Source: Escherichia coli
GTDB lineage: Bacteria > Pseudomonadota > Gammaproteobacteria > Enterobacterales > Enterobacteriaceae
Length of the DNA stretch: 64,000 nucleotides
Strand: one strand, 5' to 3'
Assembly: GCF_044324875.1 (NCBI RefSeq)
Contig: NZ_CP172185.1
The notes below the pieces were generated by a model. It saw only the letters and a list, made by a program, of their open reading frames with translations, did not search any database and was not told the origin of the DNA. Both the position numbers and the translations under genes were made by a program. Shown here piece after piece: positions 57,393 to 58,055 of this stretch (position 1 is its first letter; every line of letters starts with the position of its first letter).

Positions 57393-58055
57393 AAAAACCC
57401 CATATTCGTGGTTTTTCTGTGTCGGGGCTATTCTGCTGTTGCCGTGCTGGTGGATATTCTCCGGTATGCGGCTCCCCATATCGGCATCAGGCCCACCAGC
57501 GTGAAGCGTTTTTCATTTTTCGCGGGTATAAAAAATCGATGGGGCGGGCAGTCCTGAAGACGTCAGGGTACAGAGATTTGACCCGCCCCTCCCTGTGAAT
57601 GAGCACAATAAGTAACCGAAGGCGGAATTCCGCCCTCGGTACTTACATATGAGAAACGATATTTCTTCCACCGATACCCTTTATTTGGGTATCGCGAGTA
57701 AGCCCCAAAATCTGGGTGTTACTCTTACTACCCAAACTACGGGTAGTTTCCGTAGTTTCATGGTCGAGTTGCAAATCTGCAACTCACCCACCAGCCAGCG
57801 CAATGTCGCATTATCAGTCCTCAGATGTGAGGGATGTAGCCAGCTTTTCCCCCAGTGGGGATTATCCAGTTACCGACGGTTTAACCGCCTGTGCCAGCAC
57901 AACGAAAGAATTTGCGGGTAGCTTTAAACTACTCACAACATCCCATCTTACAGGCCGTGCCTTTCTAACTTTTTACAATGCAATAAGTCAGGTAACGCTA
58001 TGCGTTCCACCGTGTACACCGCGCCAGTAAAACCCCCGGATTCGTGGTTTTCCTG
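57393..58055. repeat. Low-coding segment bracketed by two copies of a 27-bp hairpin-capable direct repeat
   Basis: AAAAACCCCATATTCGTGGTTTTTCTG (57393-57419) and AAAACCCCCGGATTCGTGGTTTTCCTG (58029-58055). Confidence 0.5.

Follow-up and report, generated by a model that had tools for sequence, protein, structure and literature searches.

The 64,000-nt stretch of the Escherichia coli chromosome analyzed here (contig NZ_CP172185.1; hereafter the window) carries clpA (54417-56708) and clpS (56724-57044), both on the minus strand, followed to the right by an integrated island whose leftward packaging operon ends with a gene for a 94-amino-acid (aa) protein at 58068-58352 (minus strand). This analysis concerns the segment between clpS and that gene, where a reading made from the letters alone (the sequence-only reading) had pointed to two near-identical, hairpin-capable 27-nt direct repeats around a low-coding stretch and had suggested an island att core, a structured RNA or the remnant of a small integrated element. 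Its sequence identifies the segment as the non-coding 3' end of a phage-inducible chromosomal island (PICI) carrying a Nu1/Rpp-like packaging gene, and within it lies a block matching the cos region of the SfV/SfI/phiP27 group of phages. The earlier placement of the repeats between clpS and the island packaging genes was right, as was the view that they enclose no convincing open reading frame: the longest frames inside are 90-104 aa without family matches, and in the identical record NZ_CP128970.1 RefSeq has no annotation between clpS and the 94-aa gene. A coding segment or single pseudogene was rejected because the peptide matches (ENHES.., ELQICNS, KNLRVALNYSQ) are frameshifted, on different strands and not colinear.

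Aligning the island-free attB with attL of the window and attR of NZ_CP128970.1 placed the island junction at a 22-bp core, ATGATA-N-ATAACTATCAT-N-TAT, which is ATGATAGATAACTATCATTTAT in the window (57129-57150) and is duplicated at the far island end beside yljB. When this region was used as query, 5,424 of 5,426 complete E. coli genomes matched, nearly all of them (5,400 island-free) within 57045-57150 alone, and most of 57045-58120 was present in only 24 genomes of this set. The first 27-mer starts 243 nt rightward of the junction. Since both copies are internal to the island and island-free genomes lack them, they are not att sites, which disposes of the proposed att core. Tandem ATTAACTACACC repeats at 57218-57241 (plus strand) have a similar pair beside int at the other island end and analogous repeats in two related loci (L002 and L005; L numbers denote the loci compared), and they are probably Int arm-type binding sites.

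In NZ_CP128970.1 the island runs for about 10.6 kb from this junction to a tyrosine integrase adjoining yljB and cspD; the insertion site, between clpS and cspD, is the 3' end of yljB. The annotation of that record and profile searches identified a primase, SSB, a PerC-like protein, a ProQ/FinO-domain protein, a Nu1-family small terminase and the 94-aa protein. In keeping with a PICI, the integrase stands at one end, att repeats flank the element, its length falls within the class norm of about 10-15 kb, and it encodes a 582-aa protein named 'DNA primase family protein' by RefSeq together with a Nu1-like gene that has a lambda-type cosN. The ProQ/FinO-domain protein (59476-60060, minus strand; Pfam expectation value, E, 1.3e-26) is of a type seldom listed among PICI core genes.

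The block matching the SfV/SfI/phiP27-type cos comprises 83 nt at 57511-57593 (minus strand). Among 50,697 phage records searched, it was 92-95% identical to the genome termini of SfII, SfV, SfI, SfIV and ST64B, and it was 83% identical to a stretch of phiP27 annotated as 'cos-site', a misc_feature that aligns to the same place. The alignment runs across both sides of the phage ends, covering 30 nt towards terS and 43 nt towards HNH, and the block keeps the polarity of the phages, with the terS side to the left and the HNH side to the right. Within it, the predicted cohesive end (cosN) GGGGCGGGCA at 57541-57550 (minus strand) is the reverse complement of TGCCCGCCCC and an exact match to the end of SfI, whose 10-nt cohesive end, 5'-TGCCCGCCCC-3', was determined by sequencing virion DNA ends (PMC3636060). 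An 8-bp inverted partner of cosN, CCCGCCCC, lies at 57582-57589, and the inverted repeat GGGGCGGG...CCCGCCCC is kept in the phages.

The island thus shares with the cos regions of SfV, SfI, SfII, SfIV, ST64B and phiP27, and with e14-like cos regions, the identical 10-nt end and 83 nt at 83-95% identity. The settings differ: in the SfV-group phages the site sits between hnh and a P27-family terS, whereas annotation and locus comparison found neither gene in the island, and the flanks of the site are island-specific. The lack of both genes is expected for a satellite borrowing helper enzymes, and because of it the enzymes of a helper would have to cut the SfV-type cos; from the homology, the site is a putative substrate of the helper terminase. 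The 83-nt core was found in 1,887 of 5,426 E. coli genomes (~35%), mostly unannotated, so that potential helpers would be common, and the PICI version of the site with island flanks in 292 of the 5,426. The one cos-core place examined among these genomes proved to be a prophage (L062) with the order terL-terS(P27)-cos-HNH-...-KilA-N and a cos 95.2% identical to the window block.

This is not the only cos in the island. A lambda-type cosN, GGGCGGCGACCT, occurs at 59381-59392 (minus strand) as an exact match and the sole one in the window, 193 nt upstream of the gene for a 194-aa Nu1-family small-terminase/Rpp-like protein (58604-59188, minus strand; Pfam Phage_Nu1, E 2.7e-75; PHROG terminase small subunit). 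The protein is 48-62% identical to homologues in EcCICFT073-like islands and is a candidate Rpp or TerS; the literature on Rpp gives lengths of 144 aa for RppA and 153 aa for RppC. L004 and other Rpp-type loci likewise have a lambda-type cosN ahead of their Nu1-like gene, the layout of lambda and of EcCICFT073-type islands. One island therefore holds two cos of different packaging families in the same polarity, and five IMG/VR loci (L023, L025, L031, L032 and L056) carry the same combination. No description of a mixed pair of lambda-type and SfV/P27-type cos in one satellite was found in the literature searched. Satellite cos sites as such are already known; what appears to be new here, judged from the sequence, is a second cos that comes from a different helper family.

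Several known satellites are close to this arrangement. EcCICFT073, with cos1/cos2 and Rpp (Fillol-Salom 2018, 2019), and SaPIbov5 and SaPIbov4, with an HNH-type cos (Quiles-Puchalt 2014), resemble it in that a satellite without a large terminase carries the cos of its helper, and EcCICFT073 further resembles it in having a lambda-type cosN upstream of a Nu1-like gene plus a second cos. In EcCICFT073, however, both cosN are reported as lambda/phi80-like (Fillol-Salom 2018, 2019), whereas the second cos of the window belongs to the SfV/SfI/P27 family (HNH endonuclease, P27-family TerS) and stands at the island 3' end. The EcCICFT073 layout was inferred from four similar loci (L018, L045, L050 and L059), each with two lambda-type cosN; in these the second lambda-type cosN is on the strand opposite to the first, and there is no SfV-type cos. 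The capsid-forming PICIs (cf-PICIs; Alqurainy et al. preprint, 10.1101/2022.09.08.507074) are related through L002, which shares the terminal block 57289-57794 (94.7%), the 94-aa gene and the hairpin module described below (module d); unlike that element, the island of the window has no capsid, portal, HNH, P27-TerS or TerL genes. L002 has a terminal SfV-type cos plus its own diverged cos between hnh and terS. In the hnh-terS gap of the cf-PICIs L002 (10825-10943) and L005 (10709-10831), we observed a diverged SfV-type cos layout, an A-rich run followed by GGGGGCGGTCGG... and CCCCCACCCCC, which is presumably the cos of these elements themselves.

The repeats that had first drawn attention to the segment were recovered by a repeat search of the window as direct copies at 57393-57419 and 58029-58055, exactly where they had been placed, with 23 of 27 bases shared (85% identity) and a spacing of 636 nt. 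Allowing up to three mismatches, their consensus matched these two sites alone in 64 kb against an expectation of 0.00 from 100 shuffles, and a chance origin was rejected since no shuffle gave even one match. Their capacity to form hairpins was borne out weakly: copy 1 folds as DNA into a 7-bp A/T-rich stem with a 10-nt loop (free energy, dG, -3.7 kcal/mol), with a z score of only -1.4 that 21 of 200 shuffles equalled, and copy 2 reaches dG -5.6 and z -2.6. A terminator scan found no intrinsic terminator at either 27-mer, both with A/T-rich stems, and flagged a palindrome at 57615-57640 only.

Both copies match the same spot in the same phage genes, those for KilA-N proteins. Copy 2 (plus strand) forms the palindrome of the repeat unit directly beside the 94-aa gene's stop codon and lies within a frameshifted KilA-N fragment of 59 nt, 86.7% identical (E 2e-9) to the KilA-N genes of HK620 (hkbK) and many prophages; translated on the minus strand, the stretch reads ENHESGGFT and then, after a frame shift, RGVHGGTH, where HK620 hkbK has EKNHESVVFTERGVHGGTY. 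Copy 1 (plus strand), located 147 nt from cosN on the terS-proximal (packaging-start) side, is a decayed palindrome of KilA-N type, AAAAACC-N10-GGTTTTT, identical at 24 of 26 positions to the KilA-N gene of prophage L062 and to hkbK. In the intact gene the palindrome is a perfect 9 bp, AAAAACCAC-N6-GTGGTTTTT (dG -7.9, z -4.2), of which the island copies are decayed versions. The KilA-N gene of L062 lies 1.4 kb rightward of the cos of that prophage, on the same strand as copy 2, and the 27-mers match it at 24/26 and 45/49 positions.

The distribution of the two copies among related islands bears on whether they form a pair. Copy 1 occurs alone in 10 related loci, always 146-147 nt from cosN where a cos is present; copy 2 occurs without copy 1 in L019; both are found in the window and L032 only; and 7 loci with a cos lack both. 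In the window, L019, L032 and L037, the 27-mer occupies the slot beside the 94-aa gene's stop codon. The best hits to a synthetic empty site, in which the outer flanks were joined through one 27-mer, were all two-piece matches over 574 nt. Because the copies are independent in related islands and fold weakly, we read them as relics rather than as a functional pair; they are probably two separately placed relics of one phage-gene palindrome, are probably inert, and bracket the intervening DNA incidentally. The suggestion of a small integrated element was loosely right, in that phage-derived DNA (the cos site and antirepressor gene scraps) does lie between the repeats; the repeats are not the ends of one unit, given their independent occurrence, the position of module d between them and the absence of an empty site among the best matches.

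Rightward of cos, six consecutive hairpins occupy 57600-57800, with fold z scores of -9.2 and -8.9 on the two strands relative to shuffles. Other 917-nt intervals of the window rich in perfect short hairpins (15-18 against a median of 3) are located at ~11922 and 35764-39400. The leftmost of the features here is the G+C-rich, terminator-like palindrome ACCGAGGGCGGAATTCCGCCTTCGGT at 57615-57640, identified by the terminator scan, as inverted repeat I3 and by folding. It is on the minus strand, that of the packaging operon and of clpS, and probably closes the leftward late operon and insulates it from clpS; in L014 this palindrome stands between a convergent abi gene and module d.

Module d itself (57668-57790) consists of the last four of the six hairpins, at 57672-57694, 57696-57724, 57734-57758 and 57766-57785; in E. 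coli PICIs it forms a conserved flank on the 3' side of the 94-aa gene. It occurs in 706 of 5,426 E. coli genomes (13%), where it is never annotated, and always lies 3' of the phrog_1561 gene at PICI ends, across several packaging types and many integration sites; it is absent from 100,044 species representatives, where a search for its DNA pattern gave one match, in an apparently unrelated coding sequence, so that no distant homologues could be compared. Its median nucleotide identity is 95.9% compared with 87.3% for the adjacent gene, and higher than that of the gene in 43 of 47 loci, the value of 95.9% being inflated because the search pattern used to retrieve the 47 loci lies within the module. 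Matches to two alleles of another KilA-N gene involve two palindromes of module d, GAGTTGCA-N4-TGCAACTC (21/21 bases, SfII) and GATACCC-N7-GGGTATC (IMG/VR locus L053); both of these and the hkbK palindrome share the same columns in a KilA-N alignment, and all three are present in the window. A cf-PICI end in L024 has two copies of module d (946-968 and 1382-1404), 436 nt apart. The adjacent phrog_1561 gene is the last packaging-operon gene in all PICI types examined, and its 94-aa product has 957 homologues, the best 120 of which are almost all from E. coli/Shigella. The protein has no match in Pfam, NCBIfam or PDB, its AlphaFold model (predicted local distance difference test score 62; three helices, low confidence) is too poor for a fold search, and peptide patterns gave no confirmed match to the gene in 100,044 species genomes.

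Module d stands 157-166 nt from the 94-aa gene in 31 of 47 loci and 400 nt from it in the window, from which we take 57796-58067 to be an insertion relative to the basic PICI layout. The insertion consists of three decayed units, each a palindrome followed by an ATCA..TTA tail, and of antirepressor gene scraps: its phage and E. coli matches fall in KilA-N, ORF6N, KilAC and P22AR genes and include an ORF6N/Ant (ORF6N/KilAC antirepressor) fragment at 57905-57947 (plus strand) and a KilA-N fragment at 57997-58051 (minus strand). In related islands the same interval holds 1-6 units, each with a variable short palindrome and a conserved tail such as TTTCCGAAAATATCAGCGGGTTA, and at least seven different palindromes, each with the same tail after it, occupy the slot beside the stop codon. 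The PICI ends of L059 (5070-5612), L032, L024, L005 and L029, drawn from IMG/VR and E. coli genomes, carry arrays of 2-6 such units with tails that fit the consensus of integration host factor (IHF). The tail fits the IHF core consensus WATCAANNNNTTR: distinct arrays totalling 4,707 nt contain 21 perfect matches, all of them on the plus strand, against an expectation of 0.24 with both strands counted. The three tails in the window each have at least two mismatches to the IHF core or a deletion, and their units are degenerate.

Significant phage matches of the array units are to roi, Ant, KilA and Rha family genes only, in the middle of the N-terminal DNA-binding domain. One unit, for example, matches the roi of JLK-2012 over 49 nt at 92% (codons 41-57, Phage_pRha domain) and another that of HK629 over 39 nt at 87%; a palindrome plus WATCAANNNNTTR with homology to the roi family was seen in L005, L024, L029 and L059, and copy 2 of the window matches kilA-N, not roi. 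Roi reportedly binds a site within its own gene that is closely linked to an IHF site, and the rha genes of phi80 and P22 are likewise said to be regulated by IHF. A connection of Roi with IHF is also named in the title of Clerget & Boccard 1996. The units of related islands resemble this reported arrangement in HK022 roi in that they are 87-92% identical over 39-49 nt to the roi palindrome with a perfect WATCAANNNNTTR; they differ from it in being non-coding, in being repeated 1-6 times with many palindromes and in being decayed in the window, and binding of Roi or IHF to them is putative. Arrays that match internal roi/rha/kilA sites at PICI ends are a pattern apparently new to us, and by their sequence the island ends look like collections of intragenic antirepressor-gene sites, which might be decoys, sensors, roadblocks or recombination footprints. 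Clustered regularly interspaced short palindromic repeat (CRISPR) arrays and integron cassettes were considered and rejected: unit lengths vary, the palindrome is in the variable part and not in the conserved one, and the island annotation lists neither cas nor intI; the integron GTTRRRY core fits, by eye, only some unit junctions. The region from the last packaging gene to att is the place that PMC11364771, in its account of the PICI 3'-end hotspot citing Fillol-Salom 2022, assigns to accessory and defence genes. The island of the window differs in having no accessory gene there, only cos and debris, and L014 has an abortive-infection gene.

We consider it likely that the whole segment is a mosaic PICI end with a second cos of the SfV/SfI/phiP27 type (HK97-like, HNH-dependent) and that the 27-mers are relics of recombination. 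Under this interpretation, terminases of the SfV/SfI/phiP27 prophage group would cut the second cos and package replicated island DNA, and the lambda-type cos beside the Nu1-like gene would give the island a second, unrelated packaging system. Rightward of cos would follow the terminator-like hairpin, module d and a 270-nt insertion of decayed units and antirepressor scraps. Copy 2 would fill the palindrome slot at the stop codon of the last gene and copy 1 would belong to the left flank of the cos module, the source of both being a palindrome within antirepressor-family (KilA-N) genes of those prophages that also have the SfV-type cos. Some observations weigh against this interpretation. The phage-like sequence on the terS side of cosN amounts to 30 nt only, so that the binding site of the phage TerS may be missing, and both cleavage at the SfV-type cos and packaging of the island through it are predictions. 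The match of copy 1 to KilA-N genes covers 26 nt and is not significant alone in a large database, and the constant distance of 146-147 nt between copy 1 and cosN in 11 related loci could point to a function within the cos module. In addition, one and the same short stretch from the interior of antirepressor genes recurs from several alleles, which random debris explains poorly and which hints at function.

Four alternatives were weighed. Module d, the units and the 27-mers might be working sites for helper antirepressor-family proteins (Roi/Rha, KilA-N, ORF6N-Ant) and IHF, acting as decoys, sensors or IHF-dependent roadblocks that copy the intragenic roi autoregulatory site. The confinement of phage matches to the middle of one DNA-binding domain in roi, Ant, KilA and Rha genes would fit such a role, as would the three palindromes of three KilA-N alleles at the same alignment columns, the many palindromes that share one slot and one tail, the strand-specific excess of perfect IHF cores and the better conservation of module d than of the adjacent gene. 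We nevertheless hold it to be unlikely, given that the units in the window are degenerate, with two mismatches in their tails and imperfect stems in the 27-mers, that the fragments are in mixed orientations, and that the array loci share ancestry, so that the counts are not independent. The broader form of the idea, in which E. coli PICIs would keep 3'-end arrays of allele-specific palindromes, often with an IHF site and with the 27-mers and module d included, as post-replication decoys, sensors or roadblocks, and in which the SfV-type cos would serve a second helper family or even cf-PICI terminases, seems to us equally doubtful. The structured RNA of the sequence-only reading would be either a structured 3' untranslated region closing the leftward packaging operon or a small RNA that arises from this region; it would end with the hairpin at 57640-57615, with hairpins including copy 2 stabilizing or processing it, possibly with the ProQ/FinO-type protein. 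The strong folding, the minus-strand terminator-like site directly downstream, the invariable position of module d after the stop codon of the last gene, the ProQ/FinO-domain gene of the island and, in L014, a G-C to G-U change tolerated in plus-strand RNA only would all accommodate an RNA. On the other hand, the Rfam 15 covariance models gave no match to a known RNA family at E up to 1 anywhere in 57100-58100, none of the 36 predicted pairs of module d showed a compensatory change in 29 sequences that barely vary, several stem changes break pairs, and the two strands fold equally well, as DNA palindromes would. The cf-PICI loci with module d, moreover, have no ProQ homologue within the locus DNA compared, and copy 1 lies beyond the predicted terminator; we hold an RNA to be about as unlikely as the working protein sites.

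Two further explanations take the 27-mers themselves as functional or mechanistic marks, and we give both very little credence. A single Campbell-style event, in which a circular, cos-bearing phage fragment integrated through 27-nt homology and left the repeats as scars, would account for direct repeats around a phage-derived cos and for the mapping of both copies to one KilA-N site in the prophage type that carries this cos; it is hard to reconcile with the island-native module d and basic-layout sequence between the repeats, with the separate occurrence of copies 1 and 2, with a copy-1 block that lacks cos in L004 and with the two-piece matches to the synthetic empty site, and it is the most improbable of the explanations considered. 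Scarcely more credible is that copy 1 forms part of the terminase recognition region (a cosB equivalent) of the SfV-type cos module. Its terS-proximal position at a constant distance from cosN would suit that function, as would the ~95% identity of the flank 57289-57794 to cf-PICI L002, which encodes its own P27-family TerS. Yet L024, whose TerS is 99% identical to the L002 protein, has a cos without copy 1, which counts against a role of copy 1 in terminase recognition; six other cos-bearing loci also lack it, and at the corresponding distance the phages that carry this cos have terS instead. A mosaic end with a second, SfV-type cos and relict 27-mers remains the interpretation that we favour.

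Other elements lie leftward of the island. Between clpA and a tRNA-Ser gene, two CRISPR-DR4 (type I-F-like) repeats are found at 54116-54143 and 54176-54203 (minus strand), the second identical to the Rfam consensus at 28 of 28 positions; the pair looks like the small orphan CRISPR locus known to lie between clpA and infA in E. coli. The tRNA-Ser(GGA) gene occupies 53809-53896 and is followed by an RtT element at 53940-54074 (48.6 bits, above the gathering score). A second integrative element extends over ~45045-53722 (positions 1-8678 of L001) downstream of clpA, with a tyrosine integrase near tRNA-Ser; in the annotation of NZ_CP128970.1 it encodes a YfjI-family protein, an inovirus Gp2-type protein, a frameshifted TOTE conflict-system primase and a large AAA protein. 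Among the loci compared, L004 and L014 are PICIs inserted in prophage late genes (a truncated portal or major capsid gene), which fits the helper-embedded PICIs of PMC10111431.

The cos or pac site of a satellite largely decides which phages move it, and satellites spread virulence and defence genes. An island with cos sites from two families could be mobilized by two unrelated and very common prophage groups, which bears on why some PICIs have two cos sites, an open question in Fillol-Salom et al. 2019. If the palindrome arrays were functional, they would constitute a new interface between satellite and helper and a testable DNA target for the poorly understood Roi, Rha and KilA-N proteins; if they are only scars, they would mark a hotspot of recombination at which cos modules and cargo are exchanged between phages and satellites.

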